Source: Deltaproteobacteria bacterium (GTDB lineage Bacteria; Desulfobacterota; GWC2-55-46). From it: a stretch of DNA of 64,000 bases. The DNA lies in NCBI GenBank assembly GCA_016234405.1, contig JACRCC010000032.1, positions 4,360 through 68,359 on the forward strand, given 5' to 3'. The position numbers and the translations under genes were made by a program. Position 1 is the stretch's first letter. The number at the start of each line of letters is the position of its first letter. Under the pieces are notes generated by a model. That model did not search any database. It was not told where the DNA came from and was given only the letters and a program-made list of their open reading frames with translations. This document shows positions 6,384 through 51,785 of the stretch, piece by piece.

Positions 6384-6458
6384 CGCGTCTCTCCTTGAAT
6401 ACCATACGTTCACACATCGCTGCCGTTTTCGTTTTTACACGGTCACGGTTCACGGCCG

Positions 6459-8402
6459 TTAAGGCATGTTCTCCTGATACACTTTAATCTTGGCCTTTTC
6501 CCGCAGGTCCTTGAGCCACTTGTTGACGCCCTCTTCTTCTTTTTGCGCCTGAAGACGCTTTTTCAACTCGTCTTTGTCCTTATCAAATCCCTTGGTATCC
6601 GCGTCCTTTATCTCTTTGAGCCTGAAGACGAAATGCCTTCCGCCGGATTGGAGCGGGTCGGGAAAATAAGGCGCGGACTTGTCAAGGTTGAAGAACCTGT
6701 CGTCTCCGCCCGCAAAGACGTTGAGTTTCTTTATAGTCCCGTCTTTCTTACTGAAAGGGCCGGTCTCGGCGACTTTAAACTTTTCCTTTTTGGCAAGGGC
6801 GAAGAAGTCCTCACCGCCTTTGACCTTTTTGAGGAACGCTGCGGCCGCGTTTTTGGCCTCTTCCTCGGCCTTTTCCAAACGCAGTTTCTTCTTCACTATT
6901 TCGCTTATGAGCTTATACTCCGGGACGCGCGCGTCAACGCGCTCGACAATCTTTATGAGATAAAAACCCTCGTGGGTCTGCAGCGGTCGGCTGACCTCGC
7001 CTTCGCGCAGCGCAAACGCCGCGTCGCGCAGGACGTCTTGGCGCGCAAACTCCGTAAGATTATCGGCCTCGGAGAAAAGGCCCGTTGAAAAAACTTTAAC
7101 GTATTTGCGTCCGGCAGCGGCCTTTTTTAATTCCTCGACGTTCTTTGCGTCTTTGAAGGGTTTATCAAGGGCTATTATTATGTCCTTTGCCTCCACCCAC
7201 GACTTTTGAACGAGGAGCGTCTTTCGGAGCGCGCCCTCCGCGTCTTTTAAAGAGGTCTTGCCTCCGCCCCTTCTCTCCTCAGCCAAGATTATGTGAAAAC
7301 CATAACCTGACTCTACCGCGGCGCTTATCTCGCCCTTCTTGAGCGCAAACAGCCCGTCTTCAAAGGGCTTTACCATCATGCCGCGTTTTACCCATCCGAG
7401 GTCCCCGCCCTTTTCCTTTGAGCCGGGGTCCATCGAATATTTTTTCGCAAGCTGTGCGAACCGCGAGGGGATACCCCTGCCAGCGGCTTTTTTTAGTTCC
7501 TTGATGATTTCTTCGGCCTTTTTCCGCGCATCTTCCTTTGCCTTTGCGCCGTCCTTTTCCTTGGGGTCGGGCGGTATGAGTATGTGCCTTGCCTTTATCT
7601 CCTCGGGCGTCTCGAACTCCTTTGGATTTTTTTCGTAGTATTCCTTAATCTCTTCAGCGGAGACTAAAACGGCCTTTGCAGCCTCCTTGAAATCAACAAA
7701 GGCGTAGAATGCGTTTACCTTAACCGGGGTCATGAACATGGAGCCGTTTTTCTTGAGATACTCCGCAGCCTCATCGTCCGTGACCTTAACCATATCAACG
7801 AAGCGTCCCGCGTCCACGGCAACGTAATCAAGATTTATCTTTTTGTTTTCCCTTTGATAGGCCTTGCGCGCTTCGTCATCCGTAACCGTCACAACGCCTA
7901 CGGCCGCAACGCGGGCCTTTTCAACGAGCATATCCTCCTCGATGCTCTTCTCAAAATCGCGCTCTTTGTATCTATTGGCGGCGAGCACCTTTTTGTAGAC
8001 CTCGATGTCAAAGACACCGGCTTTGGAAAACGCGGGTATGGCCTTTATGGTGTCTTGAACCTCCGCTACGCTTGCAGCCATGCCCTTCGACTTAGCGTCG
8101 TTTTTGGCGAGTATCCTGTTGATGAGGATGTCGAGGGATTTCTGCTTCAACTGCATCTTCTCCATCGTCTCGTCCGAGAGCTTTCCTCCAAACATCCCCT
8201 TATAGTAATCCGTCTGTCTCCTGTAGATGGCCGTAAAATCCTTTGCGGAAATGGTCTCCCCGTCAACCGCAGCCACTGCGGCCCCGTCCTTTTCGCCGTA
8301 TTTAGACGGGCCGGCTCCCCAGAAGATAAAAACGATTACGATGGCGGCAAAGACCAGCAATATTACTACGGAACTCTTTCTTTTTCTCAAGCTTTCAAGC
8401 AT
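6459..8402 (-). CDS. ppiD: Periplasmic chaperone PpiD / SurA-N plus parvulin PPIase domain protein
   Basis: N-terminal TM anchor, SurA_N-like region, and a rotamase motif 'ARHILI...GGDLGW'. AAGGAG Shine-Dalgarno. Confidence 0.75.
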   Translation of the reverse strand: MLESLRKRKSSVVILLVFAAIVIVFIFWGAGPSKYGEKDGAAVAAVDGETISAKDFTAIYRRQTDYYKGMFGGKLSDETMEKMQLKQKSLDILINRILAKNDAKSKGMAASVAEVQDTIKAIPAFSKAGVFDIEVYKKVLAANRYKERDFEKSIEEDMLVEKARVAAVGVVTVTDDEARKAYQRENKKINLDYVAVDAGRFVDMVKVTDDEAAEYLKKNGSMFMTPVKVNAFYAFVDFKEAAKAVLVSAEEIKEYYEKNPKEFETPEEIKARHILIPPDPKEKDGAKAKEDARKKAEEIIKELKKAAGRGIPSRFAQLAKKYSMDPGSKEKGGDLGWVKRGMMVKPFEDGLFALKKGEISAAVESGYGFHIILAEERRGGGKTSLKDAEGALRKTLLVQKSWVEAKDIIIALDKPFKDAKNVEELKKAAAGRKYVKVFSTGLFSEADNLTEFARQDVLRDAAFALREGEVSRPLQTHEGFYLIKIVERVDARVPEYKLISEIVKKKLRLEKAEEEAKNAAAAFLKKVKGGEDFFALAKKEKFKVAETGPFSKKDGTIKKLNVFAGGDDRFFNLDKSAPYFPDPLQSGGRHFVFRLKEIKDADTKGFDKDKDELKKRLQAQKEEEGVNKWLKDLREKAKIKVYQENMP

Positions 8403-9657: not shown

Positions 9658-9842
9658 ACTCAGCGCCGTTTTTCATCGCGGACGTTAGCGCGGACTTCGC
9701 GGCAGCGCGATGAAAAGCGGCGCTGTGGAGTATCGAAGGGTTTTATGCTGAAATTGTCTCGAAGCAAGTTTAGAGAAATTAGACCCCGAAAGGGGAATAA
9801 CAGCGCGGCATTGCACCAGACCACAGGGGTGGCAGACTACCC

Positions 9843-10760: not shown

Positions 10761-10761
10761 C

Positions 10762-10846
10762 GACCGTGAACCGTGACCGTGAACCGTGACCGTAAAGGAT
10801 TAGTTTTTACACGGACACGGTCACGGACACGGCCGTTACACGGTCT
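10762..10846. repeat. Family-C short tandem repeat (cgtgaac/cgtgacc), inverted pair
   Basis: Other copies at 6438-6458, 22922-22947, 34258-34280, 43911-43932, 48894-48919 and 63137-63164. Often found at gene 3' ends. Confidence 0.8.
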
Positions 10847-10851
10847 TTACC

Positions 10852-17162: not shown

Positions 17163-17323
17163 GATTGAGAGGCCTTTCTCGTTACCAAGCCTGCCCCCGC
17201 TTCAAGCACGCGAGGGCAGTCTTGGTAACGCAATTGCTTATGAAGTTCCGGCTTCATCAATAAAAAGAAGACGGTGGGCGGCGCCGCCTTGACAAGGACA
17301 TAGAATCCGCAAAGACAAAAGAT

Positions 17324-19578: not shown

Positions 19579-19637
19579 TCCCCTTATGGGGTAGTAATAC
19601 CCCTAAGGAGGGCAATGCCCCCTCCCCTGCCCTGATA

Positions 19638-20267: not shown

Positions 20268-22907
20268 ATGGAATCGTCCGAAATCAGAAAAAGGTTCGTT
20301 GAATTCTTCGCAAGGCGCGGCCATGTTATCGTGCCTTCGTCGTCCCTCGTCCCCAAGAATGATCCGACTCTCCTTTTCACCAACGCGGGCATGGTGCAGT
20401 TCAAAGGCGTGTTTCTCAATGAGGAGACCCGTCCGTACAAGCGCGCGGTCTCATGCCAGAGGTGCATGAGGGCCGGAGGCAAACACAACGACCTTGAAAA
20501 CGTCGGGAAAACCGCGCGCCACCACACGTTCTTCGAGATGCTCGGCAATTTTTCGTTCGGCGATTATTTCAAAGAAGCCGCCGTAGAATACGCATGGGAG
20601 TTTCTCACCGTCGAGATGGGTCTGCCCAAAGACAAACTCTGGGTTACGGTCTTCGAGACCGACGCTGAGGCTGAGGCCTTCTGGAAGAAAAAAACCGGAC
20701 TGCCGGACGAGAGAATCATCAGGATGGGCGTCAAGGATAACTTCTGGTCAATGGGAGACACCGGCCCATGCGGGCCGTGTTCGGAAATATTATTCGACCA
20801 AGGGGCAGAGGCCGGATGCGGCAAACCCGAATGCGCCGTAGGTTGCGACTGCGACAGATACCTTGAGATATGGAACCTTGTGTTCATGCAGTATGACAGG
20901 GACGTTGATGGGACGCTCAAACCCCTGCCCAGCCCCTGCATTGACACGGGCATGGGTCTTGAGCGGCTTGCCTGCGTCATGCAGGGCAAAAAGTCCAACT
21001 ACGACACCGACCTCTTCCAACCGCTGACGGAGTGCATATCTAAAATCTCAGGCGTTAGATACGGCGCCCACGCCGGAAGCGACGTGTCCATGCGGGCAAT
21101 CGCGGACCACGCGCGCGCCGTTACTTTTCTGATAAGCGAAGGCGCGCTGCCGGGTAACGTCGGCAGGAACTATGTTCTGCGCAGGATTATCCGGCGCGCT
21201 GCGCGGCACGGGAGGTTTTTGGGCATTAAGGAGCCTTTCCTGTGGAAGGTGAACCTGTTGGTTGTCGAGCTTATGGAGGGCATTTACCCGGAGATGAAGG
21301 ATAGCATCGGCGTTATCTCCCGCGCAACAAAGGGCGAAGAGGAGCGATTCTTCGAGACGCTTGAACGCGGGCTTTCCATGCTCGACGCGGAGGTAGAGCG
21401 CCTTAAACGCGAAGGCGGCTCGATTATCCCCGGGCCATCGGCCTTCAAGCTCTACGACACCTACGGTTTTCCGGTTGACCTTACCGCCGACATAGTTAAA
21501 AAAGACGGCTTTATCGTAGATGAGGACGGTTTCACGAAGGCCATGGGCGAACAGAGACAAAGGGCGCGGGCAGCGTGGAAGGGAGCGGCATCCGGCGATA
21601 AAGTCGAGCTTTACAAAAACATCCATGACTCGGGCGTCAGGTCCGAATTCATCGGTTATCAGATGGAGTCGTCGTCATCAAGGGCGCTTTGCATCATAAA
21701 AGGCAACGACACCGTTGACAGGGCAAACGCCGGCGACGAGGTCGAGATAATAACCGAGGAAACGTCTTTTTACGGAGAATCAGGCGGCCAAACCGGGGAC
21801 AACGGCCAGATGACCAATGCCGGGGGCGCGAAGGTGGATGTCATTGACACGAAAAAGCCCCTTGCCGATCTCATCGTGCATCATTGCAAGATTACCGCAG
21901 GCTCCGTAACAATTGACGATACGTTGGAGCTGCGCCCGGATATACTTATGAGGCGCGCGGCGGCCCGCAACCACACGGCCACTCACATCCTGCACGCGGC
22001 CCTGCGCACGCTTGTCGGCAGCCACGTAAAGCAAGCCGGTTCGCTCGTCTCACATAAGGGTCTCAGATTCGACTTCAACCACTTCGAACCGCTCAGCAAT
22101 GAAACCCTCAGAAAAATAGAAGACGCTGCCAACGAGGCGATACTCGACAATATTGAGGTCATGACCGACGTGCTGCCTTACAAAGAAGCGGTCTCAAGGG
22201 GGGCGCTCGCTTTTTTCGGCGACAAATACGGGGAACTTGTGCGTATGGTCAGCGTAGCAGGCGTAAGCGCGGAACTTTGCGGCGGCACGCACGTAACACG
22301 CACGGGCGACATCGGTCTTATAAAGATAATCTCCGAGACCTCTGTCGCGTCAGGCGTGAGGAGGATAGAGGCAATGACGGGCGCATCGGCCTTCGACATG
22401 TTACGCGCATCCGATGATATTCTCAAAGAGGCCGCGCATATCCTCAAGTCCCCCAAAACGGAAGCGCCGGAAAAAATAAAAAAACTCCTCGAAGACTGGA
22501 AGGCCGCACTTCGAGAAGTGGAGCGGCTCAATGGTAAGGGCAAGGCCGGCGACGCCGAAGGGTTGCTCTCGTCCGTCAACAAAATAAAGGGCGTAAAGAC
22601 CATCGTCGCAAAGGTTTCAACCGGCGATGCAAAAGAGATGCGCGGGATGGCGGATGTTTTAAGGGGCAAACTCGGAAGCGGCGTGGTTGTGCTCGCGGGC
22701 GCGCATGAGGATAAGGCGTTCATACTTGCCGCCGTGACAAAAGACCTTACGGGGCGCATACCTGCAGGCGATATTATAAAGAGGCTTGCCCCTGTCATCG
22801 GCGGAAAGGGCGGAGGCAGAGCCGACCTCGCTCAGGCCGGCGGCGAGGCATCGAAAATCGGCGACGCGATAAAGGCGGCGCACAAAACGATCGAAGAGAT
22901 GCTGTAA
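20268..22907 (+). CDS. alaS: Alanine--tRNA ligase
   Basis: Class II catalytic core, editing domain 'HTATHILH' and 'CGGTHV', C-Ala domain. Confidence 0.95.
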   Translation: MESSEIRKRFVEFFARRGHVIVPSSSLVPKNDPTLLFTNAGMVQFKGVFLNEETRPYKRAVSCQRCMRAGGKHNDLENVGKTARHHTFFEMLGNFSFGDYFKEAAVEYAWEFLTVEMGLPKDKLWVTVFETDAEAEAFWKKKTGLPDERIIRMGVKDNFWSMGDTGPCGPCSEILFDQGAEAGCGKPECAVGCDCDRYLEIWNLVFMQYDRDVDGTLKPLPSPCIDTGMGLERLACVMQGKKSNYDTDLFQPLTECISKISGVRYGAHAGSDVSMRAIADHARAVTFLISEGALPGNVGRNYVLRRIIRRAARHGRFLGIKEPFLWKVNLLVVELMEGIYPEMKDSIGVISRATKGEEERFFETLERGLSMLDAEVERLKREGGSIIPGPSAFKLYDTYGFPVDLTADIVKKDGFIVDEDGFTKAMGEQRQRARAAWKGAASGDKVELYKNIHDSGVRSEFIGYQMESSSSRALCIIKGNDTVDRANAGDEVEIITEETSFYGESGGQTGDNGQMTNAGGAKVDVIDTKKPLADLIVHHCKITAGSVTIDDTLELRPDILMRRAAARNHTATHILHAALRTLVGSHVKQAGSLVSHKGLRFDFNHFEPLSNETLRKIEDAANEAILDNIEVMTDVLPYKEAVSRGALAFFGDKYGELVRMVSVAGVSAELCGGTHVTRTGDIGLIKIISETSVASGVRRIEAMTGASAFDMLRASDDILKEAAHILKSPKTEAPEKIKKLLEDWKAALREVERLNGKGKAGDAEGLLSSVNKIKGVKTIVAKVSTGDAKEMRGMADVLRGKLGSGVVVLAGAHEDKAFILAAVTKDLTGRIPAGDIIKRLAPVIGGKGGGRADLAQAGGEASKIGDAIKAAHKTIEEML

Positions 22908-22949
22908 CGGCCGTAATGAGGCCGTGACCGTGAACCGTGCCCGTGAAAA

Positions 22950-23050
22950 GATTTTCCTCTCGTTCCCAAGCTCCGGCTTGGGAACGATGTTGCGCGGGAA
23001 GCTTAGCTTCCCGATAATTGCGTTACCAAGCGGAGCTTGGTGACGAGAGG
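22950..23050. repeat. Run of three short hairpins with 4-nt loops (gttcccaagcTCCGgcttgggaac; gggaagcTTAgcttccc; ttaccaagcGGAGcttggtga)
   Basis: Similar hairpin trios at 50725-50790. The shared 'aattgcgttaccaag' core recurs inverted at 17218-17245. Confidence 0.6.
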
Positions 23051-23061
23051 CTAAGCAACCC

Positions 23062-23112
23062 GTAGCTCAGGGCTTTAGCCCTGATATAATCAGACCTAAA
23101 GGTCTGAGCTAC
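23062..23112. repeat. Family-A intergenic structured repeat (gtagctcagggctttagccctgata...cagacctaaaggtctgagctac)
   Basis: Nested hairpins. Related copies at 28271-28327 (inverted variant), 28429-28480, 41066-41100 (partial), 56256-56318 and 63188-63276. Confidence 0.8.
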
Positions 23113-23137
23113 AATCCCATTCCCTAAGAGGACGCTT

Positions 23138-23860
23138 TTACTTTTGAGGGGTCAAGAGCAGGTTCAGATACATCTGCGCCATCTTGTCATCCGGTCTTTT
23201 CCGCAGCACCTTCAGCCATTCGGTCTTTGCCTTTTCGTGCCGGCCCATGACGTAGTAAGTGAGTCCGAGTTGTATCCGTGAAGACGGGTGATCGGGGTTG
23301 CGCTCAACCGCCTCTTCAAGCGTCTTTAACGCCTTGCCGTATTCCTTCATGTCGCGGTACGCTGCGCCTAAATGGATACGGATGTCAATGAACTCCGGGC
23401 GCAGGCTCAAAGCCTTCTGATACTCCTCCGCCGCGTCGGCGTAATGACCGAGGTCTTTGTAGATGTTGCCTACCTCGGCGTGCATGTTGGCGAGTTTGCC
23501 CTTAACGAACGGGTCGAGATAGGTCTTCTCTTCTCTCCTCACGTCCCTTGCCTTTTCGTATATGGCGGACGATTTGTCGTACCTGCCCAGTTCGTTATAC
23601 ACGACCGAGAGGTTTAGCGACGACTCGGTGTAGTTGGGGTTTATGCCGAGCGCCTTCTGGAAGGCGGAGATCGCCTCTTCAAAGCGGGATTTTTGATAAT
23701 ACAAAAGGCCGAGCATGTTGTATACGTCGGCGAAGGTCTGCTTCTCCTTCACGACGAATTCAAAACACTGCAGGGCGGTGTCGTACTTTTTTTCCTCGAA
23801 GGACTTTTTGCCGAGTTCGTAGTAATACTGCCAACCCTTTTCGACGGTTTCCTCTCCCAC
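23138..23860 (-). CDS. Tetratricopeptide repeat protein
   Basis: Multiple TPR units (W-LG-Y-A-F-P patterns). Confidence 0.7.
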   Translation of the reverse strand: MGEETVEKGWQYYYELGKKSFEEKKYDTALQCFEFVVKEKQTFADVYNMLGLLYYQKSRFEEAISAFQKALGINPNYTESSLNLSVVYNELGRYDKSSAIYEKARDVRREEKTYLDPFVKGKLANMHAEVGNIYKDLGHYADAAEEYQKALSLRPEFIDIRIHLGAAYRDMKEYGKALKTLEEAVERNPDHPSSRIQLGLTYYVMGRHEKAKTEWLKVLRKRPDDKMAQMYLNLLLTPQK

Positions 23861-23951
23861 GCTTCCTCCTTGAAAAACAGCTGCCGGTTATCCGTTATCG
23901 GTTAAGGGATGTTTCTACTGATAACCGTTCACCGATAACCGTTTTTTACGT

Positions 23952-24761
23952 TCAGATATCCTTCAACCTGCCTCTTGCGTCTCCGGCAAATGGACTTTCG
24001 GGATAATTGGCAACGAGAGCGGTGTATGCCTCTTTTGCGAGCCGCTTTTCCCCGAGATGGCCGTAGGATTCGCCGATGTAGTAAAGCGTCTTGTCGGATA
24101 TGCCGGCGTCCGGATAATTTTTAAGAATGTCGCGCAGCCTCGCAAGGGCACCCTTGTAATTGTCTCCGTTGAAGTAAAAATCCGCGATATAGAACTCCCT
24201 CTCGGCAAGTCTATGTTTTAGAAAAATGGACATCTCCCTCGCCTTGCCTGTGTAGATGGAGCCTTGATATCCGGCAACGAGGTCCTCGAATGCGAAAAGA
24301 GCCTTTTTTGTGGACGTCTGGTCCCTGTCGACGCTCAAAATCTCCTTAAAGTGACTCATCCCCTTTTGAAAAAGCGCGTAACCGGCCATTGGATGGCGCG
24401 GGTGCATCGCCGTGAAGTTGGTGTAATAAGAGGCCGCGTCATCGAATTTGCCCGTTGAATAATAAACGTCTCCGAGCATCAAGAGCGCCTCTACCGCGAG
24501 GGGGTCTAAAGGGTGCTGCTCCATAAGTTCTTTGTAGAGCTTTTCGGCGTCTTCATACTGCTCCGAGACATGTGCGCTGACGGCCTTGCCGTAGAGTTCC
24601 TTAGGCGGTACCCTGCCGTGAACGAGTTCCTCGGTGGTCGAGCAGCCGTAGAGCGCCGCAAAAACCATCGCCGTCAAAAAGACGGCCTTTACGCCGCGCA
24701 GGACATCCCGGATGGTTTTCCCATCCTTATGTTTCAAACTCGACGGAATAATAAAACTCAT
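23952..24761 (-). CDS. bamD: Outer membrane protein assembly factor BamD (TPR lipoprotein)
   Basis: Lipobox 'LYGCS' followed by BamD-type TPRs. Conserved tail 'YPESPFAGDA'. Confidence 0.75.
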   Translation of the reverse strand: MSFIIPSSLKHKDGKTIRDVLRGVKAVFLTAMVFAALYGCSTTEELVHGRVPPKELYGKAVSAHVSEQYEDAEKLYKELMEQHPLDPLAVEALLMLGDVYYSTGKFDDAASYYTNFTAMHPRHPMAGYALFQKGMSHFKEILSVDRDQTSTKKALFAFEDLVAGYQGSIYTGKAREMSIFLKHRLAEREFYIADFYFNGDNYKGALARLRDILKNYPDAGISDKTLYYIGESYGHLGEKRLAKEAYTALVANYPESPFAGDARGRLKDI

Positions 24762-24882
24762 AAGTCCTAACGCCTCAATTGCCGGTTATCGCTTCTCAAC
24801 GCCTCAACTATAACCCGTATTATGTAATCTACCATAATAAAAAAAAGTTTTCAAGCCGCCCAACGCGCGCGCCGCTGTTCCC

Positions 24883-25332
24883 CTATCCGGTATAAGGAGA
24901 ATCAAAAAAGCGTTTTTCTTCCGGGGTGAGAATCTCAGACGTTGTTATCGTCAAAATCCTTGCGCCGCCTTCCGCTCCAATGGTCTTGTGCTCTACGTCA
25001 ATCACCTCATCCGCGATAATGCCCGCTATACGTCCTTCAAACCGGACTATCAGTATCTTAGCGGGGCGCTGGCCTGATGACGGCAGCGAAAATCTCTTGC
25101 GGATGTCAATCAAAGGAACCGAGATGCCCCTTAACTCAACGAAGCCGGCCATACCCTCCATTGCCCGCGGCTTGCGCGCGGGAGGGCTGTAAGGTATTAT
25201 CTCTTTGACCTCGTCAACCGCTATGCAAAACCCCGCGCCTGAGACCTTGAAATGGACGAATTGAAAATCGTAAGGCCTTCCTTTATTTAAAAAAGAGCCG
25301 GGGGGATTATCCTTCGCGCTTTGCTTTGACAC
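24883..25332 (-). CDS. cheW: Chemotaxis coupling protein CheW
   Basis: CheW-like domain 'FCIAVDEVKEII...MEGMAGFVELRGISVPLIDIRKRF'. Confidence 0.8.
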   Translation of the reverse strand: MSKQSAKDNPPGSFLNKGRPYDFQFVHFKVSGAGFCIAVDEVKEIIPYSPPARKPRAMEGMAGFVELRGISVPLIDIRKRFSLPSSGQRPAKILIVRFEGRIAGIIADEVIDVEHKTIGAEGGARILTITTSEILTPEEKRFFDSPYTG

Positions 25333-25354
25333 TTAGGCGGAACTCCTTTTAAAG

Positions 25355-25484
25355 ACGGTTATCGGTTGTCCGTTATCGGTTATCGTTTTAAGAAAAATTA
25401 TTTTTTACCTTCACTGCCCAGCGCCACTTTCCGATACCAGCCTTATTATCCTGCGCGGCCTATGCAACGGAAAGTGGCGCTGGG
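25355..25484. repeat. Composite of a family-D (ggttatcgg) repeat and a family-B palindromic element (cccagcgccactttcc ... ggaaagtggcgctggg)
   Basis: Family-B full copies at 25417-25484, 58253-58323 and 62529-62596. Solo half-sites at 33794-33809 and 41108-41123. Confidence 0.8.
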
Positions 25485-25510
25485 GATAACCGGCAACCGG
25501 TAACTTTTTT

Positions 25511-26089
25511 TTAAAACACCGTCAGATCAACAAGCCGTGCGGCGCTTAAAAGCCGTATAACCCTGTCTCCTGATTTTATCACGCCTTTTACGAACTCCGT
25601 CTCGCACGAGGCGCATTCATTCGGCGCAGGCACCCGGACGTCCGCGAGACGGACGTCCCTTACGCCGGAGAGCCTGTCAACCAAAAAACCGGTCTTCATG
25701 TCGTCAACGAGCGTTATCAAAATCCTTGCGCCGTACTGGCTGGCCGGTGCAGAAACGATACCGAGACGTTCTTTGATATCAACGACGGACACCATCTCTC
25801 CCCTGTGGGAGAATATCCCTTTTATGAACGACGGAGTGCGCGGCACCTCGGTCAGCGCGCGTAATCTAACCGCCTCGACGGCCTCGGTTATGGGAAAAGC
25901 ATACTCGGCGCCGCCGGCAAAAAAAGATAAGACGGTAATCTTTTCCGCAGCTTCACCGCGGTACTCAAGGCTCCCGTCATAATCAGCCTCCGTCGGGGCC
26001 ACGGTGCGCTGTGATGACGGCGCTTTGCCCTGCCCCCCTTGCGCCGCGACGCCCGTCCTTTTTTTCTCCGCCTTAAGCATATCTCTCAC
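25511..26089 (-). CDS. CheW-like domain protein with a roughly 50-aa low-complexity N-terminal extension
   Basis: CheW domain 'YAFPITEAVEAVRL...IKGIFSHRGEMVSVVDIKERLG'. Confidence 0.7.
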   Translation of the reverse strand: MRDMLKAEKKRTGVAAQGGQGKAPSSQRTVAPTEADYDGSLEYRGEAAEKITVLSFFAGGAEYAFPITEAVEAVRLRALTEVPRTPSFIKGIFSHRGEMVSVVDIKERLGIVSAPASQYGARILITLVDDMKTGFLVDRLSGVRDVRLADVRVPAPNECASCETEFVKGVIKSGDRVIRLLSAARLVDLTVF

Positions 26090-28224
26090 GCGGACGCCGC
26101 CGTCCTTCTCTCTCTCAAAGATTCTTCAAGGACCCCCGCCATGTCGAGCACAAGGAGCGTGCCCTTGTCTCCCATGTCCGTTGCCCCGGCGACCCCCGGA
26201 GCCTTTACGATGCGGGGTATGGGTTTGATGACTATCTCTTGTTCCTCGATGAGCCTCTCGACTATCACGCATATCCTGTGCTCTGCCATCCCGGCGACTA
26301 TGCCGTAGCAAACCGACGGGCACGCGCCCAGCGCCGCTTCCGGCGCAGACCTTTTTTGTTTATATGCAGCCTCGGTGACGGAAGCGGCGCTGGGCGCGCC
26401 ATTGACAACGGATACTCCCCTTCTGAAAAAATCGCGGAGGCGGACCTGCGGTGCGCCCTTGTGCTCGGCGGCTGACATATCCGGGGACGCCGCCTCGTCG
26501 AGGAGATTGCCGCCAAGCTCGATTATCTCAACGACCGGATTCATCGGCACGGCGTATCTGACCCCCGCGTCCTCGACGATGAGCGCCTGTACGATGGCGA
26601 GCGTTATGGGTATCGTCAGCATGAACCGCGTGCCCTTGCCCTTTACCGTCTCGATGTCTATGACGCCGCCGAGCCTTGAGATGTTTTCTTTCACCACGTC
26701 CATTCCGACGCCCCTGCCGGAGGTCTCGCTCACCGCGTCGCGCGTGGAAAAACCCGGCATAAAGATAAGCTCAATAGCCTCCCGGCGGGAGAGCCTCTTT
26801 ACGAAGTCCCTCGTAAACGCGCCCGTACGGACGGCCTTTTCCCTGACCGCCTCCTCGTCAATGCCGGCCCCGTCGTCTTTCACCTCCACTACGACGTGAT
26901 TGCCCTTCTGATAAGCCGCGAGCGTCAACGCGCCTTGCGCGTCCTTTCCGAGCGCCTCCCTTACATGAGGCGGTTCGAAGGCATGGTCAACGGCATTTCT
27001 GATTATGTGCATCAGCGGGTCCGCGAGTTCCTCTACGATGAGCTTATCCAATTCGGTCTCGTCTCCGACGGCGGTCATCCTCACGAGTTTGCCCGATTCG
27101 CGCGCGAGCTTTTCAACGAACGGCTCGTATCTGGAAAAGAGATTCCCGATCTTTACCATCCGCACGTCAAGGACGCTGTCCCTGAGTTCTCCGAGTTTTC
27201 TCTCAAGGGTCCTCTCGGCCTTGGAGAGTTCAAGGCCGTAGACGGACAGGGTCTTATCGTTCCTGATGGCCGCGCCGAGCGCTTGGATGTCCCCCTTGAG
27301 TATCCCAAGTTCGCTTATGATGTTCATTATCGCGTCGAGCCTCGTGATGTTGACCCTCACGGTGCTGCTCACGCGTCTCATGGTCATCTGCTCGGCTTCA
27401 AGGACGCCGGCCGGCGGCAACGGATGCTCTATGGATGGCGCGTGCGCCCGCCGTGAAGCCGCTGCGGGGATCGGCTTGGCCGGCGCTCCCTTATTCCAAC
27501 TCGTCCTAAATTCGACAAGCCCCATACCGGTCTTGAAAAGTCCTTTTACGAACCCGACGTCTTTTCTCGTCCCGATGATTATGTCGAAATAAAGCGATTC
27601 ACTCTCAGCCCCGCGGGACGGGAGCGTGGATATGACCTCGGAATTCCTCTTTAACGCGGCTATGACGGCCGCGTAGTCACGCTCGAAATCCGAGATGGGG
27701 AAGACGAACGTCAGGATGAAGATATTTTTCCCGGACACGGCGTTCTCGGAGAACCTGTGGGCCTCGTACCCCGTGAGGAGCGAGAGCAGCTCTTTGTCTA
27801 CCGCTTGAAGCTGCTTAACCGCCCTGACGGATGCGCTCTCCGAGAGCTTTTTAACCGTTGCCTCCAACTCCATTGCGAAACCGGCGCCTCGTTTTGACGA
27901 GATCATCTTAGAGAGCAGTTCATGCGCGCCCATGAGCGAAGAGATCACCTCCGCGCTCAAAGAGACCTGTCCGAGCCTCAAGAGATCAAGGACGTCTTCG
28001 GTCGAGTGCGACAGACGCGCAAGTTCCTTAAAACCCATTATGCCGGCCATGCCCTTGAGCGTATGTGCCGCCCGAAAGACCCCGTTGAGGATATCGGGAT
28101 TGAGATCCTTATCCTCCATGCCCCTTGCAAGTTTCAAAAGCCCAGCGCCCATTGAATTGAGGAGGTCTTCCGCCTCTGCAACGGACTCCTTGAAACGCTC
28201 TGCCTTGTTCTCGACTTTACGCAT
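26086..28224 (-). CDS. cheA: Chemotaxis histidine kinase CheA
   Basis: HPt domain 'AAHTLKGMAGIMGF', dimerisation domain, HATPase_c, C-terminal CheW-like domain. Overlaps the downstream cheW-like gene. Confidence 0.9.
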   Translation of the reverse strand: MRKVENKAERFKESVAEAEDLLNSMGAGLLKLARGMEDKDLNPDILNGVFRAAHTLKGMAGIMGFKELARLSHSTEDVLDLLRLGQVSLSAEVISSLMGAHELLSKMISSKRGAGFAMELEATVKKLSESASVRAVKQLQAVDKELLSLLTGYEAHRFSENAVSGKNIFILTFVFPISDFERDYAAVIAALKRNSEVISTLPSRGAESESLYFDIIIGTRKDVGFVKGLFKTGMGLVEFRTSWNKGAPAKPIPAAASRRAHAPSIEHPLPPAGVLEAEQMTMRRVSSTVRVNITRLDAIMNIISELGILKGDIQALGAAIRNDKTLSVYGLELSKAERTLERKLGELRDSVLDVRMVKIGNLFSRYEPFVEKLARESGKLVRMTAVGDETELDKLIVEELADPLMHIIRNAVDHAFEPPHVREALGKDAQGALTLAAYQKGNHVVVEVKDDGAGIDEEAVREKAVRTGAFTRDFVKRLSRREAIELIFMPGFSTRDAVSETSGRGVGMDVVKENISRLGGVIDIETVKGKGTRFMLTIPITLAIVQALIVEDAGVRYAVPMNPVVEIIELGGNLLDEAASPDMSAAEHKGAPQVRLRDFFRRGVSVVNGAPSAASVTEAAYKQKRSAPEAALGACPSVCYGIVAGMAEHRICVIVERLIEEQEIVIKPIPRIVKAPGVAGATDMGDKGTLLVLDMAGVLEESLRERRTAASA

Positions 28225-28394
28225 GGCGCGGCACCATTATTGGTTTATGACGAGACTTTCCATATACGCAGCTCAGACCCGTAGCGCAGGCCTTTAGGCC
28301 TGCGTTTATCAGGGCTGAAGCCCTGAGTCTCTCTTTTTACCACAACCGCCCGTTTTTGTAAACATTATCGGAATTATGGCGTTTTTGGCGGTAA

Positions 28395-28515
28395 ATAAAA
28401 AAGGGCGGGCAGCGCCGCTTTGCATCATGTAGCTCAGGGCTTTAGCCCTGATAAAAGTCAGACCTAAAGGTCTGAGCTACGCATATGCAAAGCGGCGCTG
28501 CCCGCCCTTTTTCCC
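28395..28515. terminator. Large inverted repeat (aaaagggcgggcagcgccgctttgcat ... atgcaaagcggcgctgcccgccctttt) enclosing a family-A repeat; likely bidirectional terminator downstream of ahcY
   Basis: Roughly 27-bp perfect arms flanked by A and T runs. Confidence 0.45.
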
Positions 28516-28540
28516 GTAATAGAGACTTGTATAAATCCCT

Positions 28541-29833
<1,293 letters not shown>

Positions 29834-33667: not shown

Positions 33668-33822
33668 CTCTTCAAAATCTCCAACTCAAGGATGCGTGCG
33701 TCATATACAATGAAAAGCCTCCGGCGCATATCCGCATCGCCCGGCGCCGCTTTTCATTACGAAGGTATGTTGGTTATTGACCTACTTCGCGTAGAAAAGT
33801 GGCGCTGGGTAAAAACTAACGG

Positions 33823-34274: not shown

Positions 34275-35138
34275 TCACGGTTTTTGTATATCCCTGTGCC
34301 TTTTTTGGACCGTAAACGTCGGAGAGTTTATCATCAAACAGACCTCATCCGCGATTACGACGGACCTGTGCCTGCCGCCGGTGCATCCAACCGCGATGGT
34401 AAGATATGCCTTGCCCTCTTTCCGGTACATCGGCATCAGGTAATCGAGAAACGCCTTGAACCTTTCGAGAAATTCCGTTGTCTCGGGGCGTCCGAGGACA
34501 AATCCCCTTACCGCCCCTGATCCTCCGTCAAGCGGTCTCAATTCCTCGACGAAGTACGGGTTGGGGAGAAACCGTATGTCCACAACGAGGTCCGCGTCCG
34601 CCGGAATGCCGTAGCGGTATCCGAACGAAACCACGTTTACGGTCATCTTTTCCCGCGCCGTTGCCCCTGAATAAATCCCCTTTATGTGCTCACGGAGCTG
34701 ATGCACGTTAAAACCGGTCGTATCAACGACCCTGTCGGCCAGGGATTTTATCTCGTTTAAAAGCCCCCTTTCCTTTAATATGCCTTCGAGGGGGCCGCCT
34801 GCCGCTGCAATGGGATGCCTCCTTCGCGTTTCGCTGAACCTTCTTACAAGAGAGTCGTCCTCCGCTTCAAGGTAGAGCAGCTCGACCCTATACCCGTCCT
34901 TCTTAATCCCCGCAAAAACCCCGGAGAACGCCTTGAGGAACTCCCCCTCCCTCACGTCAACGACCGCCGCGACCTTCGTTATCTCTCCGGATTGAGAGAG
35001 CACCTCCATGAATTTAGGAAGGAGCGTAACAGGGAGGTTATCCACGCAGAAAAAACCCACGTCTTCAAGGGCCTTGATGGCCGTGCTTTTGCCTGCGCCG
35101 GAGGCCCCGCTTAATACGACAAGCCGTATGTCCTTCAA
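34275..35138 (-). CDS. rapZ: RNase adapter protein RapZ (YhbJ)
   Basis: Walker A 'GASGAGKST'. Conserved C-terminal region 'GCTGGRHRSV'. Confidence 0.9.
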   Translation of the reverse strand: MKDIRLVVLSGASGAGKSTAIKALEDVGFFCVDNLPVTLLPKFMEVLSQSGEITKVAAVVDVREGEFLKAFSGVFAGIKKDGYRVELLYLEAEDDSLVRRFSETRRRHPIAAAGGPLEGILKERGLLNEIKSLADRVVDTTGFNVHQLREHIKGIYSGATAREKMTVNVVSFGYRYGIPADADLVVDIRFLPNPYFVEELRPLDGGSGAVRGFVLGRPETTEFLERFKAFLDYLMPMYRKEGKAYLTIAVGCTGGRHRSVVIADEVCLMINSPTFTVQKRHRDIQKP

Positions 35139-37406: not shown

Positions 37407-38903
37407 TCAATAGTGCATCCTCCTCCTGCTTGAAGGCTGAATGCCGAGGGTCTCCCTGTATTTTGCGGCCGTGCGCCTTGCCAACACTATCCCGTCCTTT
37501 TTAAGCTCCTCCACTATCTGTACGTCGGAGAGCGGGCTTTGCGGGTTCTCCCCCTTGATTATCGCCTTGAGTTTTTCCCTTATATACTCGGTAGCCACGT
37601 CGCCGCCGTCCGAGGTCGCCATGCCCGTGGAAAAAAAATACTTTAACTCGAATATCCCTCGCGGCGTCTGCACGTATTTATTGGATGTTACCCTGCTTAC
37701 GGTTGATTCGTGCATGCCTATGCCCTCGGCAACGTCCCTGAGTATCATGGGCCTCATGAACTGGAGTCCCTTATCGAAAAAATTCCTTTGTAATCTCACG
37801 ATACACTCGACTACCCGCTTTATGGTATTCTGTCTCTGATAAACGCTGTTGATGAGCCACAACGCGCTCCTGCGTTTTTCCTGAATGTATTCCTTCGCGT
37901 CGTCCGGCATCGCGCCTCCGGATTTGAGTATCTGCGCGTAGTAAGGGCTTATCCTGAGTTTCGGCAGCCCGTCTTCGTTCAGGGTTATAACGTAATCGTC
38001 CCCGTCCTTGTGGATGTAAACGTCGGGCACTATCGCCGAGCCGATGTCCGCCCCGAAGCCGGCGCCCGGCACGGGGTTCAGGCATTTATTTATCAGCCTT
38101 GCCGCCTCGGCAACTTCATCAATCGTTATGCCAAGCAGCTTTCCCACTGCCTTGTAGTTCTTCCTTGCAAGGAGTCCGAGATGGCGGCTTATAATCTCCT
38201 CGACCAACGTGTCGCGCACCGGGAGCTGGCGCGCCTGAATCAAAAGACATTCGCGCAGGGTGCGCGCGGCAACGCCGGGCGGATCGAACTGTTGGATGAG
38301 ACCCAATGCCTTCTCAACGGCATCAATGGAGACTCCGGTATGCCTTGCGACCTCGGCAACGGCAAGGGCCTCGGCCTCAACGTCGCTGAGACTCGCGCCC
38401 GTATCCGGGCACAACTTCAGGTATCCGTCTTCGGCGATATTGCCGATAATGAATTGGCCGGCTGCCGCAACGTCGGGGGCCAATACGCTCATCTTGAACT
38501 GCCACATGAGATGCTCGGAAAGACCTCCCGTAGACGCCGAGAAAGAGGCCATGTAGTCGTCGTCTTCCGCGTCGCTGCGATTGCTAAAATTCAACCTATT
38601 GCCGCCGTAGTCCCCGCTCGACTCGATATAAGACTGCCAATCCTCCTCGGACTTTTCGGTCTCTTGTGTATTCGTTGTCCCGTCCTCTTCGCCCGTCTCG
38701 TCCGCCTCACCCTTGGCGGCATCAACGCCGTCCTCGCCGGTCTCAGCAATATCCTCGACGACGGGATTGGTCTCAAGCTCTTCGCGTATGGTCTCGACGA
38801 GTTCAAGCCTCGATAGCTGCAGCAGCTTTATCGCAAGCTGCAGCTGCGGCGTCATTACGAGGGATTGAGTGAGTTTTAGTTCTTGTTTGAGTTCGTATGC
38901 CAT
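37407..38903 (-). CDS. rpoN: RNA polymerase sigma-54 factor
   Basis: Region I 'LKLTQSLVMTPQLQLAIKLLQLS' and the RpoN box 'ARRTAAKYRE'. The track ORF (to 39002) carries a false 33-aa N-extension read through family-D repeats; the true start is 'MAYELKQ' at 38903. Confidence 0.9.
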   Translation of the reverse strand: MAYELKQELKLTQSLVMTPQLQLAIKLLQLSRLELVETIREELETNPVVEDIAETGEDGVDAAKGEADETGEEDGTTNTQETEKSEEDWQSYIESSGDYGGNRLNFSNRSDAEDDDYMASFSASTGGLSEHLMWQFKMSVLAPDVAAAGQFIIGNIAEDGYLKLCPDTGASLSDVEAEALAVAEVARHTGVSIDAVEKALGLIQQFDPPGVAARTLRECLLIQARQLPVRDTLVEEIISRHLGLLARKNYKAVGKLLGITIDEVAEAARLINKCLNPVPGAGFGADIGSAIVPDVYIHKDGDDYVITLNEDGLPKLRISPYYAQILKSGGAMPDDAKEYIQEKRRSALWLINSVYQRQNTIKRVVECIVRLQRNFFDKGLQFMRPMILRDVAEGIGMHESTVSRVTSNKYVQTPRGIFELKYFFSTGMATSDGGDVATEYIREKLKAIIKGENPQSPLSDVQIVEELKKDGIVLARRTAAKYRETLGIQPSSRRRMHY

Positions 38904-38908
38904 AAAAG

Positions 38909-39011
38909 CGGTTATCGGTTGACGGTTATCGGTAAGACGGTTATCGGTTATCAGTGAAGGTGAAAAAATAATTTCCTTAAACCGATACCTGATAACTGAC
39001 AACCGATAACG
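38909..39011. repeat. Family-D repeat cluster (ggttatcgg / ccgataacc arms around an AT-rich core) upstream of rpoN
   Basis: Other copies at 23884-23941, 25355-25416 and 61425-61504. Confidence 0.8.
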
Positions 39012-39013
39012 TT

Positions 39014-39730
39014 TTAAAGCCTGAACTTTTCCCCGAGATAAACGTCTCTCACCTGTTTGCTTTCAAGTATCTCGGACGGGGCGCCGGATTTCAAGAGCCT
39101 GCCGCCGCCGATTATGTATGCGCGGTCGCAAATGCCGAGCGTCGCCCCGACGTTGTGGTCTGTCACAAGTATGCCGATTCCCTTTTTTTTCAACCCGAGC
39201 ATTATCTCCTGAATGTCGCCGACGGCAATGGGGTCTATGCCGGAAAACGGCTCGTCAAGTAGAAAAAAAGAAGGCGAGTTTACCAGAGCGCGGGCTATCT
39301 CCACCCTCCTCCTCTCGCCGCCTGAGAGCGAATACGCCTTTGCCTTTGCAAGGTGGAGCACCCCGAGTTCGTCAAGCAACGCCTCAGCGCGCTCGGAAGT
39401 CTCGTCAACGCCGATACCCATAAACTCGAATATCGCCCTCACGTTCTCCTCCACCGTGAGCTTCCTGAAAACCGACGGCTCCTGCGGCAAATAACTTAGC
39501 CCTAAGCGCGCCCTTTGATACATCGGCATCCGGGTTATGTCTTCATGCCCTATCATAACGGCGCCCTCATCCGGACTCACAAGGCCCACGGCCATGTAAA
39601 ACGTGGTGGTCTTGCCCGCGCCGTTAGGCCCCAAGAGGCCGACTATCTCTCCGGGGGAAACGTGCATGCTTACGCCGTCCACCACTTTTCTCTTTTTGAA
39701 GGATTTAACGAGGCCCTTTACATAGAGCTT
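39014..39730 (-). CDS. lptB: LPS export ABC transporter ATP-binding protein LptB
   Basis: Walker A 'GPNGAGKTT', signature 'LSGGERRR'. Start at 'MKLYVKGL'. Confidence 0.9.
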
Positions 39731-40337
39731 CATCACCAGCCACCTTAGGGGGAGTTTTGACGTCAAGTTTGGAACTAAATTTCGCCCCCGCCCGCGCGTC
39801 CGCAGCAGGGGGGGGCGTTCCCCCGTTGCTTGATTTGCCGCAGTTTTTCCCCGGCGTAATAACGGCCTTTACCCGTTGCGCTCCCGCCCCCTCTACGGAC
39901 GCGGTGTTGTCGTCGAGACGCATCGTAATCCTCTCGCCCTTGACCGTGTCCACGCACTGCTCGACTTGGGAATGACCCGAGAGAACGACGGTGCGCTCCT
40001 GCCTTTTATAAACGGCCGAATCCGACCTGGCGGTCTTTCCGTCCTGAAATATGCGGACATTTCCGTCCGCCCTCATCTCGCTTACCTCGTTTCCGGCGCC
40101 GTAGGTTATAGTAAGCTCATCCGAGCAGAGCGTGAAGTCCTCGACCGCCGCGACGTTTCCCTTAAAAACTACCACGCCGCTCACCTTGTCGGCCTCAACC
40201 CTGTCGGAGGTTATCGTAACAGGCGCGCCGGGCATTGGGGCAGGGGCGTCCGTCTGTCCGGCCGCAACGCCCGCGCTGTATATTATCGCAAACATAGCCG
40301 CCGCTAAAACGGCGCGGCAGCGGGTTAATAAGCTCAT
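39705..40337 (-). CDS. lptA: LPS transport periplasmic protein LptA (OstA-like) with a Pro/Ala/Gly-rich C-terminal tail
   Basis: Signal peptide plus OstA-like beta-jellyroll repeats. Overlaps the lptB start. Confidence 0.7.
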
Positions 40338-40907: not shown

Positions 40908-41161
40908 AAAATTAATGCTTCTTTGTCAAGAAGCATCCGCCGTCATTTCGCGCAAAAGTCAGACCTGCCGGTCTGAGCCACAGTCTGCCTGATTTGCTGC
41001 TGGCAAAAATTATACCACCCATAAGGCTCAAAGTAAAGTTTGCGGAGGTTTGACTGCGATGTGTGCAACTCAGGGCTTAGATGAGCAATTCCTTTTCTCC
41101 TTGCGATGGAAAGTGGCGCTGGGCAAAACCCCTTTGTTCTTCAAACACTGACCTGTATCTC

Positions 41162-43895: not shown

Positions 43896-43932
43896 GTTCG
43901 TCTTTTGTCTTCACGGTTCACGGTCACGGCCG

Positions 43933-48844: not shown

Positions 48845-48921
48845 CAAATGTATTTCTCTTGTAAAAACCCCAATTTTTGTTGTATATATCTTTAACGGTC
48901 ACGGTTCACGGTCACGGCCTT

Positions 48922-50261: not shown

Positions 50262-50330
50262 GTCCGATATTTCTGTCCGATATTTTTCTGTCCGATATTT
50301 CTTGACAACGCATCCCGGTTCATCTACCAT
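50262..50330 (+). promoter_or_regulatory. Three direct repeats (gtccgatattt) abutting a consensus -35 TTGACA (50302-50307), N17, TACCAT (50325-50330)
   Basis: Repeat copies at 50262-50272, 50275-50287 and 50290-50300. The -10 lies 8 nt before the ATG, which implies a near-leaderless transcript. Confidence 0.4.
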
Positions 50331-50338
50331 TCGATCTT

Positions 50339-50683
50339 ATGGACAGCAGGATACTGGACATACTCGTTGACATCAAGGCGGATGTCGGCGGACTCAAGAA
50401 GGGACTGGCCGACATCAAGGCCGACGTCGCCGATATCAAAATGGATATCGCCGACATCAAGGCCGACGTGGCTGAGCTTAAGGGCGACGTGGCTGAGCTT
50501 AAGGCCGACGTGGCTGAGCTTAAGGCCGATGTAGCTGAGCTTAAGGCCGATGTGGCTGAGCTAAAAGACCGCGTGGGCAGGCTCGAAGACGACATGGCTG
50601 AGGTTAAGTCCGAGGTCAGGACCATATCTCACGCGCTCCTCGATACGTCCAAGGAGGTTGCGAGGCTCAAGGGGAGCGGGTAA
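50339..50683 (+). CDS. Coiled-coil protein with tandem heptad repeats (DIKADVA/ELKADVA)
   Basis: Five tandem 21-bp units (50462-50566) encode AELKADV heptads. No TM segment and no recognisable family. Confidence 0.5.
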   Translation: MDSRILDILVDIKADVGGLKKGLADIKADVADIKMDIADIKADVAELKGDVAELKADVAELKADVAELKADVAELKDRVGRLEDDMAEVKSEVRTISHALLDTSKEVARLKGSG

Positions 50684-50790
50684 CGGAAAACGGAGACTGT
50701 AGTCATTTTTATCGTTCCCACGCTCCGGCGTGGGAGGGCATCTTGGGACGCTCCTGCGTCCAATGCGGCGGCAGGCATCCGCCGTTTAAC

Positions 50791-51677: not shown

Positions 51678-51785
51678 GAATGGAAAATAGCATATAGGCA
51701 TAAATATTACAAGCAGCGGCGTTTGACCGGTATTGATTATGGAACATTGCCGCGCTCACAATCACGGCGCAATCCCGCCCGCCCA

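Follow-up and report, generated by a model that had tools for sequence, protein, structure and literature searches.

Families of short palindromic repeats, one of them resembling GTAG-type REPs, in the intergenic spacers of an uncultured Thermodesulfobacteriota-like bacterium

The locus and its repeats

The 64-kb stretch considered here, referred to below as the window, comes from a genome deposited as Deltaproteobacteria bacterium (GenBank assembly GCA_016234405.1, contig JACRCC010000032.1, positions 4,360 to 68,359), and the spacers between its genes carry at least six families of short hairpin-forming repeats, denoted A to F. With a G+C content of 54%, it looks like core chromosome of an uncultured, sulfate-reducer-like relative of the Thermodesulfobacteriota, and its gene content, as annotated with Pfam and NCBIfam, is housekeeping only: metH, greA, proS, mreBCD with the PBP2 and RodA genes, recA, recX, alaS, bamD, cheW, cheA, ahcY, metK, lptC, rpoN, the HPr kinase gene, rapZ, genes for the phosphotransferase system (PTS) components EIIA and IIB, radA, a GIDA-domain gene, rsmI and an ABC transporter. 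Among the sequences obtained, the closest is locus L068 of the soil Thermodesulfobacteriota metagenome-assembled genome (MAG) DASRUI01, which is syntenic over ahcY–metK–ptsI at 70–75% DNA identity, with AhcY and MetK 78% and 73% identical as proteins. We consider it likely that the spacers have been colonised by several small non-autonomous palindromic repeat families, of which family A, an apparent repetitive extragenic palindrome (REP) of the GTAG type, was spread by a REP-associated tyrosine transposase (RAYT) encoded elsewhere in the genome.

An earlier note on this DNA, made from the sequence alone, had named families A to D; their sequences and positions agree with ours, and their counts are 10 to 700 times those expected from dinucleotide shuffles. 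The family A hairpin CTCAGRSCTNNAGSYCTGAG, at up to 2 mismatches, occurs 14 times in the window against 0.02 expected, the family B arm CCCAGCGCCACTTTCC, at up to 3 mismatches, 12 times against 0.85, family C CGTGAMCCGTGMMC 7 times against 0.10 and family D GGTTATCGGTTRYC 21 times against 1.3, and families E and F were found in addition. The elements are almost entirely intergenic, most lying directly 3′ of stop codons or between cistrons, as in mreB/mreC/mreD, between the cheW genes, upstream of rpoN, between the EIIA and IIB genes and between the ABC ATPase and permease genes. Structure prediction, proposed for RNA in the note as a check, gave very strong folds for elements and composites alike (z −5.6 to −15.3). 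No Rfam covariance model matched the whole window at the gathering score, and at E ≤ 1 the region 22800–28600 yielded only sub-threshold matches to miRNA-precursor models, which match long hairpins and are noise.

How much of the spacer sequence is occupied was assessed with gaps defined from a curated gene list; 44 of these measure 30 nt or more and together span 5.6 kb. An assigned element was present in 19 of the 34 gaps longer than 60 nt, so that the statement in the note that almost every gap above 60 bp holds a repeat was too strong. All-against-all comparison covers 25% of the bases in the 44 gaps, and the annotated elements sum to 1.84 kb, or about 30% of intergenic bases.

Family A resembles a GTAG-type REP

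The family A unit opens with GTAG-C and continues as a 7-bp stem closed by a TTYA loop of 4 nt, e.g. GTAGCTCAGGGCTTTAGCCCTGA; in one example GTAGC is followed by TCAGGGC, the loop TTTA and GCCCTGA, and thus has the tetranucleotide and the palindromic unit of 20–50 nt by which GTAG-headed REPs are defined (PMC8266576, PMC3733652). The window holds 14 hairpin units at 7 loci, all 14 of them intergenic, arranged as inverted pairs with heads outward and a short linker (23062–23112, 28429–28480), as a tandem array (59334–59475, which the earlier note had placed at 59332–59475) and as degenerate solo units at 40955, 56254 and 63239. In this list and those that follow, features given without a sign have no assigned strand.

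23062–23112: family A doublet, GTAGCTCAGGGCTTTAGCCCTGAT + ATA + ATCAGACCTAAAGGTCTGAGCTAC, heads outward, between the convergent alaS and TPR genes; DNA fold −17.9, z −6.8
28281–28327: variant family A doublet, GTAGCGCAGGCCTTTAGGCCTGCG + ATCAGGGCTGAAGCCCTGAG
40955–40981, minus: single degenerate family A unit (GTGGCTCAGACCGGCAGGTCTGAC on the minus strand)
56254–56320, plus: family A variant GTAGCGCAGACCTTCAGGTCTGCG, then 3.3 copies of the 15-nt TCAGGTCTGCGATTA
59334–59475: tandem BIME-like array of REP and inverted-REP family A units, with periods of 51 nt (100% identity) and then 38 nt
63239–63274, minus: inverted family A units, CTCAGACCTAAAGGTCTGAGCTGCGGCCTGAGCTAC

Covariation was examined in an ungapped alignment of 45 distinct family A units from the window and 22 MAGs, in which G1, T2, A3, C5, C7, A8, C12 and A16 do not vary, while position 4 may be G or A. 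The proportion of paired cells is 96.8%, a figure inflated by the prior removal of head-matched sequences lacking a hairpin, a step that does not inflate the compensatory changes. Double-sided changes occur in four of the seven pairs and amount to 51 cells where shuffles give 15.3; no shuffle among 500 reaches as many, and pairing collapses to 12–44% in controls in which the hairpin was slid. These compensatory changes support the predicted stem. Judged by its sequence, family A is a bona fide GTAG-type REP, organised as bacterial interspersed mosaic elements (BIMEs) or REPINs (REP doublets forming hairpins) at 23062–23112, 28429–28480 and 59334–59475, where the arms belong to different subtypes. 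No paper containing the unit sequence GTAGCTCAGGGCTTTAGCCCTGA came up in the searchable literature. Viral collections contain no copy of family A or of family B, so carriage by phage is unsupported.

Family A in other genomes and its association with RAYT genes

Copies of the repeats are not restricted to the window, and their arms are conserved between copies, so that the refutation proposed in the earlier note fails: A, E, D-like motifs and B-like arms all occur in other genomes. For family A, a scan for an exact 21-mer, with one genome per species, recovered at least 94 stretches from at least 22 MAGs labelled as at least 10 phyla or candidate phyla, and several contigs each carry the 21-mer in the Thermodesulfobacteriota, in Candidatus Aquicultor and other Actinomycetota, and in the Anaerolineae, Planctomycetota and Desantisbacteria. 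Among the matches listed, related MAGs have dozens of family A copies on separate contigs. The 21-mer unit in these genomes again has an inverted partner, across a linker of 3–45 nt, and the stem of the partner varies by genome (CCC/GGG, ACC/GGT, GCC/GGC, AAC/GTT) with complementarity always kept. Many of the right-hand REP units in L030, L034, L049 and L090 (JBAQMW01) and in L024 and L068 (DASRUI01) have a second small hairpin in the loop, for example TCAGCCCT[TCCGCCTCAGGCGGA]GGGCTGAGTTAC, and the module GCCTGCCCCCGC is found also inside the family E hairpin at 17180–17230 of the window.

The open reading frames (ORFs) of loci selected solely by the 21-mer were searched with a RAYT probe and then with a hidden Markov model built from its matches, and Y1 genes were found in four of the loci fetched: L037, L051, L075 and L057. 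In L037 (Candidatus Aquicultor primus) the gene is framed by GTAGCTCAGGGCTTCAGCCCTGA and, across from it, ...CCCTGAGCTAC, and in L051 (a Deltaproteobacteria MAG) a complete A doublet and CTGCGCTAC units stand at one flank of the gene and CGCAGACCTGAAGGTCTGCGCTAC at the opposite flank. The gene of L075 (Nitrospinota) is flanked by a related GTAGC unit, GTAGCAACAGGTCTTTAGACCTGTT. The fourth, at 1500–2200 of L057, from the closest relative (Thermodesulfobacteriota MAG DASRUI01), encodes an E. coli-type RAYT (NCBIfam, 194.6 bits) and is flanked by a different GTAG REP, GTAGGGTGGGC... / GTAGGGTGGGCTGTGCCCACC, which indicates that the relatives carry at least two types of REPtron, i.e. RAYT with its REPs.

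All four Y1 proteins pass Pfam Y1_Tnp, and the NCBIfam equivalog for REP-associated tyrosine transposases (REP_Tyr_transpos) was passed by each of the three tested, with L051 and L037 scoring 99.5 and 105 bits against a cut-off of 80. The sole RAYT searched against the PDB, that of L051, matched only 4ER8, TnpA-REP. The L037, L051 and L075 proteins form one clade, being 44–49% identical to each other and 24–29% identical to the E. coli-type protein of L057. Because family A units flank RAYT genes in other genomes, we regard family A as the REP of a RAYT clade. A homologue search returned about 230 proteins, most of them confined to a single contig, which is the pattern that single-copy RAYTs would give, and as an independent test four of them were fetched by exact protein identity (from Acidobacteriota, Desantisbacteria, Thermodesulfobacteriota and Syntrophaceae); each of the four has short-looped hairpins with a GTAG or GTAA head at its flanks. 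In the Desantisbacteria locus L100 (ENA k141_411382, 4790–7500), two RAYT paralogues stand 2 kb apart amid arrays of GTAACTCAGGGCTTTAGCCCTGA.

The REP arrays flanking these two paralogues are GTAAC-headed. A Y1-like ORF in L060 belongs to another family (E 8.6e-12 to the RAYT profile), lacks a flanking family A unit and was set aside.

Family B palindromes

Family B is a palindrome of about 70 nt, with arms of 16–20 nt around a centre of 35–40 nt that is partly conserved between copies.

9661–9725: variant family B palindrome, between mreB and mreC
25417–25485: family B palindrome (B2), 16-nt arms CCCAGCGCCACTTTCC and 36-nt centre, nested in D arms, between two cheW genes
26323–26398: B-like palindrome (B3), in frame inside cheA (26086–28224)
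33740–33809: family B palindrome separating the PTS EIIA and IIB genes; 75% identity to B7 over the centre
41102–41123, plus: solo family B arm, adjoining the family F unit at 41072–41100
58252–58324: family B palindrome upstream of the GIDA-domain gene, in a divergent spacer
62528–62597: family B palindrome (B8), forming the last ~31 codons and stop of ORF 62502–63080

The copy in cheA is the only clear intragenic case in the 64 kb. Through it the P5 (CheW-like) domain gains 26 residues (GAPSAASVTEAAYKQKRSAPEAALGA), and in-silico removal of the 26 codons extends the CheW-like Pfam match from profile positions 70–136 to a contiguous 2–136; the presence of a B-like palindrome in frame in this gene shows that B was inserted de novo. 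Overlap with gene ends, also claimed in the earlier note, is seen in B8, whose host ORF is hydrophobic and has no Pfam or NCBIfam match, and in a C-like motif at the 3′ end of rapZ (34275–35138). At the other end of genes, the longest ORFs of rpoN (37407–39002) and of the GIDA-domain gene (56932–58380) extend 35–50 codons upstream into D and B elements, and since the Pfam domains begin later than the ORFs, the repeat hairpins create false N-terminal extensions. In the GIDA-domain gene the Pfam match begins at residue 53 of the long ORF, which places the B element at 58252–58324 upstream of the likely true start.

Families C, D, E and F

Family C is an array of CCGTGA(A) units with a 6/7-nt period, present once as an inverted pair, and family D is a hairpin element of 80–115 nt with CGGTTAT-type heptamer arms and A-run/T-run flanks, two copies of which, D1 and D4, are homologous through both arms and loop. 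Family E comprises GTTCCCAAGC/GTTACCAAGC/GTTCCCACGC hairpins and doublets, at 17180, 22956, 50712 and 50228, and family F is a 29-nt unit.

6437–6458, minus: family C array between proS and the SurA-like gene
10761–10851: inverted family C arrays in the mreC–mreD spacer, folding into a long imperfect hairpin; z −5.9
22922–22947, plus: CCGTGA(A) array of family C with a period of 6/7, immediately 3′ of the alaS stop
43905–43929, minus: family C array
48895–48917, minus: family C array
63136–63162, plus: family C array adjoining F (63190–63218) and A (63239–63274)
23873–23949: family D hairpin element, CGGTTAT arms and A-run/T-run flanks, between bamD and the TPR gene
25351–25514: family D arms (25351–25393, 25482–25514) around B2
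38904–39020: family D hairpin element between ORF 39014–39766 and rpoN
61422–61512: family D hairpin element separating the gene for the ABC ATPase from that for the permease; arms of 34 nt with 85% complementarity; z −6.7
17180–17230: family E hairpin GTTACCAAG...CTTGGTAAC, upstream of recA and enclosing a GCCTGCCCCCGC hairpin
22956–23050: family E composite of three hairpins (GTTCCCAAGC.., CGGGAAGC.., GTTACCAAGC..), closed by CCTCTCG/CGAGAGG; z −10.2
50712–50765, plus: family E doublet, TCGTTCCCACGCTCCGGCGTGGGAGG + GGGACGCTCCTGCGTCC
41072–41100, plus: family F unit, with a second copy at 63190–63218

The right arm of the D element at 61422–61512 is 91% identical to that of D1. ORF 39014–39766 is taken to be lptB from its position in the lptC–rpoN cluster. 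Family E recurs in related genomes, the composite at 22956–23050 as an 83%-identical copy in MAG JACRNO (L084, 3179–3275) and the doublet at 50712–50765 nearly unchanged in the JACRNO and DASRUI MAGs. In the Desantisbacteria locus L100, at about 800–860, a separate CGTGTAA heptamer array resembles family C. REPs of the CGTC type, which have a terminal CGTC, an 8–9 bp stem opening with complementary A/T pairs, a 4–5 nt loop and a CCA tail, were considered for B and E and rejected, as neither has the CGTC tag or the CCA tail and their stems begin C/G or TC.

Composite junctions and nesting

Elements of different families also adjoin or enclose one another, and the earlier note had located three such junctions correctly, at 22908–23137, 25355–25484 and 63134–63280. 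At 22908–23137 a small hairpin is followed by the C array (22922–22947), the three-hairpin E composite (22956–23050) and the A doublet (23062–23112), and the RNA of 22905–23140 folds at −109 kcal/mol with z = −8.8. The second junction, spanning 25351–25514, has D arms around a B palindrome, and the third, spanning 63136–63274, joins C, F and A. A further composite has the lowest z:

28398–28512: B-like palindrome with 28-nt perfect arms and A-run/T-run flanks (terminator-like), downstream of ahcY; −58.5 kcal/mol, z −15.3

The family A doublet at 28429–28480 is nested exactly at the centre of this palindrome, and extra hairpins are likewise nested inside the loops of REPs or of E (17180; L030, L034, L049, L068). 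A further sign of mobility, besides nesting, is that orthologous spacers differ in occupancy. That between ahcY and metK is 48 nt long and repeat-free in the window, and in L068 it measures 230 nt and contains a B-like arm as well as a REP doublet; downstream of the g47549 orthologue, L086 has an A doublet where the window has a C array (48895–48917).

Other features of the window

No tRNA or tmRNA genes were found in the 64 kb. A perfect 71-nt direct repeat (50791–50861 and 51786–51856) lies on both sides of a HepT-like/MNT nucleotidyltransferase toxin–antitoxin pair (50879–51292, 51282–51701), its second copy being the 3′ end of radA (51790–53148), and the pair looks like a 1-kb cassette put in at the end of radA with duplication of its target. 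A tandem of 13–15 nt (GTCCGATATTT..., 3 copies) at 50262–50302 lies upstream of a small coiled-coil Lpp-like gene, which itself contains a 21-nt coding repeat in 7.4 copies (50459–50613). Small hairpins of the GGGG(N)TA(N)TACCCC type, ggggtagtaatacccc, gggggctataccccc and gagggtaataccctc, at 19579–19637 and 63829–63900 may, from their sequence, be a further minor repeat family.

Proposed mechanism and competing explanations

By analogy with characterised REPtrons, the family A unit would fold into a hairpin on single-stranded DNA, and a single-copy RAYT (the HUH/Y1 enzyme TnpA-REP) would recognise this hairpin together with the GTAG guide tetranucleotide and cut and rejoin the DNA, dispersing the units; new copies would prefer other extruded hairpins, giving rise to nested and composite junctions. 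The same analogy suggests that the RAYT acting on family A is encoded in this genome, and GTAGCTCAG-type units are the form of family A to be expected beside its gene if the REPtron interpretation is true. Families B, D and E appear, from their structure, to be analogous dispersed palindromes, C and the arms of D being built of 6/7-nt periodic units, and any movement of B to F might take a related route. The suggestion in the earlier note of a REP/RAYT-type system holds for family A, with its GTAG head, palindrome, inverted pairs and RAYT adjacency elsewhere, and B to F could be linked to no transposase.

Besides the inflated pairing figure given above, several observations weigh against this explanation. 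The 64-kb window contains no Y1/RAYT or other transposase gene, and the searches made tied no transposase to B, C, D, E or F, none of which carries a GTAG head or a CGTC tag. Each family A pair combines two subtypes (GGGC versus ACC/GCC stems), and for this reason the long REPIN hairpin is only about 83% complementary (79–88%). There is no direct evidence of recent transposition, and empty-site comparisons are coarse since the nearest genome is only about 70–75% identical in DNA.

A live rival for B and D, and perhaps E, though one we think doubtful, is that these are classical miniature inverted-repeat transposable elements (MITEs), internally deleted derivatives of DDE-type insertion sequences that the transposase of the parent element moved by way of their terminal inverted repeats and are not REP/RAYT substrates. 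Family B has terminal inverted repeats of 16–20 nt around its partly conserved centre and was demonstrably inserted in cheA, and D also has terminal inverted repeats, its D1 and D4 copies being homologous throughout; target-site duplications, however, are not visible at any B or D copy, and neither the window nor some 640 kb of related loci contains a parent insertion sequence. A metagenome scan for the full B palindrome gave only four matches, all in unrelated low-GC contigs, none from a relative and none with a Y1 gene. These contigs (L095–L098, 37–51% G+C) have palindromes with the family B arms CCCAGCGCCACTTTT, and two of them end at the palindrome. In one, L096, the palindrome has the same 15-nt arms and lies 140 nt upstream of an rve/IS481-like DDE transposase gene, which would fit a MITE origin, but the transposase falls below NCBIfam cut-offs and there is no B arm at its other end, so that it remains a lead.

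Somewhat less probable again is that the elements are not mobile DNA and arose locally as functional signals in RNA or DNA, i.e. terminators, attenuators, RNase processing hairpins or protein-binding arrays, whose similarity reflects a common binding factor; the arrays of C and D could then be protein-binding sites, like the short tandemly repeated repetitive (STRR) or TAACTGA repeats. The A-run/T-run flanks of D and of 28398–28512 recall bidirectional terminators, elements stand right after stops and just before starts within operons (mreBCD, cheW–cheW, the rpoN cluster, the ABC transporter), and C and D have a 6/7-nt periodicity. Heptamer repeats that are abundant between genes and have no known mobilisation mechanism are on record (PMC4679880), and the Desantisbacteria locus has a similar CGTGTAA array. 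Near-identical sequences of 50–115 nt at many unrelated loci and in other genomes nevertheless indicate insertion, as do the in-frame copy in cheA and the nesting of one family in another, which do not suggest evolution in situ; family A units, moreover, have no T-runs and are explained directly by RAYT adjacency. For family A a local function complements dispersal by a RAYT and is not a true rival, since function after insertion fits that explanation. That the repeats are artefacts of assembly or binning, or chance low-complexity matches, is effectively refuted: the window does come from a probably metagenomic assembly, and several single-copy matches in other phyla could be mis-binned contigs, but the enrichment over shuffles is large, the copies sit between intact housekeeping genes, and the units recur in independent assemblies from different studies and on many contigs per MAG.

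Possible functions of the hairpins

Hairpins in 3′ untranslated regions and intercistronic spacers would be transcribed and, by analogy with E. coli REPs, probably act as mRNA 3′-end stabilisers, partial terminators or processing sites. The idea of the earlier note that the repeats are likely terminators applies to part of them: the D elements and the palindrome at 28398–28512, with their A-run/T-run flanks, look like bidirectional terminators or attenuators, and family A units are followed by no T-run, their flanks reading ACAATCC, GCATATG or AGACCTG, and are therefore not canonical terminators. A simple terminator scan of the window, which gave 12 against 7.7 expected and so no enrichment, is uninformative because its loops were limited to 3–8 nt.

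Significance and comparison with known systems

To our knowledge, REP/RAYT systems have been studied almost entirely in Proteobacteria. The window offers a dense multi-family mosaic in an uncultured Thermodesulfobacteriota-like lineage, and one specific REP sequence tied to a distinct RAYT clade across many phyla, which makes family A and its RAYT clade a test case for the co-evolution of REP and RAYT and for the movement of REPtrons between phyla. There are also practical consequences. Repeat hairpins break metagenome assemblies, produce false ORF extensions and altered gene ends (rpoN, the GIDA-domain gene, ORF 62502) and add peptide loops (cheA), and annotators should therefore mask such repeats in MAGs of this kind.

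GTAG REPs, BIMEs or REPINs, and the REPtrons formed with RAYT (TnpA-REP) have been described in detail (PMC2817692, Nunvar 2010; PMC3116915, Bertels & Rainey 2011; PMC3733652, Di Nocera 2013; PMC8266576, Corneloup 2021), and family A shares with them a GTAG 5′ of a short perfect palindrome and a 4-nt TTTA-type loop, the loop that is found also in the Marinomonas group 3 REPtron, where a guide role of the GTAG was described (PMC8266576). Further likenesses are the head-outward inverted pairs with a variable linker, head–head dimers being the commonest type in PMC3733652, the tandem arrays, the extragenic location between unidirectional and convergent genes, the subtypes with compensatory stem changes and the doublets nested in longer palindromes, as reported for REP dimers (PMC3733652). 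Several coexisting REP families per genome, mosaics and intragenic REPs are likewise on record (PMC3733652), so that the mosaic described here is a rich but ordinary example and the density which the earlier note called unusual is so only in a relative sense. As in known REPtrons, family A units flank RAYT genes in other genomes (L037, L051, L100). The host, an uncultured Thermodesulfobacteriota-like lineage, differs from those of known GTAG REPs, and the associated RAYT clade is only 24–29% identical to the E. coli-type enzyme of L057.

The other families find their closest parallels elsewhere. Family B recalls the Rickettsia palindromic elements (RPEs) and intragenic REPs in that B3 adds a 26-residue loop to CheA in frame and B8 provides a C-terminal tail and a stop codon, although its sequence is different, it has no GTAG or CGTC tag and there is one clear intragenic case. 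Families C and D, as tandem 6/7-nt intergenic units near gene starts for which no mobilisation mechanism is known, are like the cyanobacterial STRR and the Beggiatoaceae TAACTGA repeats (PMC4679880), and differ from these simple direct arrays in forming two inverted blocks with hairpins of 25–35 bp, conserved loops and A/T-run flanks, and in behaving as dispersed elements of 80–115 nt.

BIMEs of E. coli are mosaics of the Y and Z subtypes of REP in alternating orientation. Family A pairs similarly join two REP subtypes in opposite orientation, in tandem at 59334–59475, with linkers that are short and variable and no evidence here of binding motifs for IHF, gyrase or Pol I between the units. 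The usual picture of such systems is that REP sequences differ between lineages and that RAYT systems are inherited vertically. The least expected point of this analysis is that one REP sequence, in contrast with known REPtrons, is identical over its 21-mer in MAGs of at least 10 phyla or candidate phyla, with RAYTs only 44–49% identical. A speculative reading, which we think rather improbable as a whole, is that the A unit and its RAYT clade form one widely shared REPtron lineage and that C, D and B are classes with an undescribed mobiliser. If this were true, the lineage would span Thermodesulfobacteriota, Actinomycetota (Aquicultor), Chloroflexota, Planctomycetota, Desantisbacteria and others, with a substrate of 21–23 nt kept identical while the enzymes diverged to 44–49% identity, and would imply either that REPtrons have passed between phyla of anoxic subsurface bacteria or that purifying selection on the REP has been unusually strong, each of which would clash with the accepted view of lineage-specific REPs and vertically inherited RAYTs.

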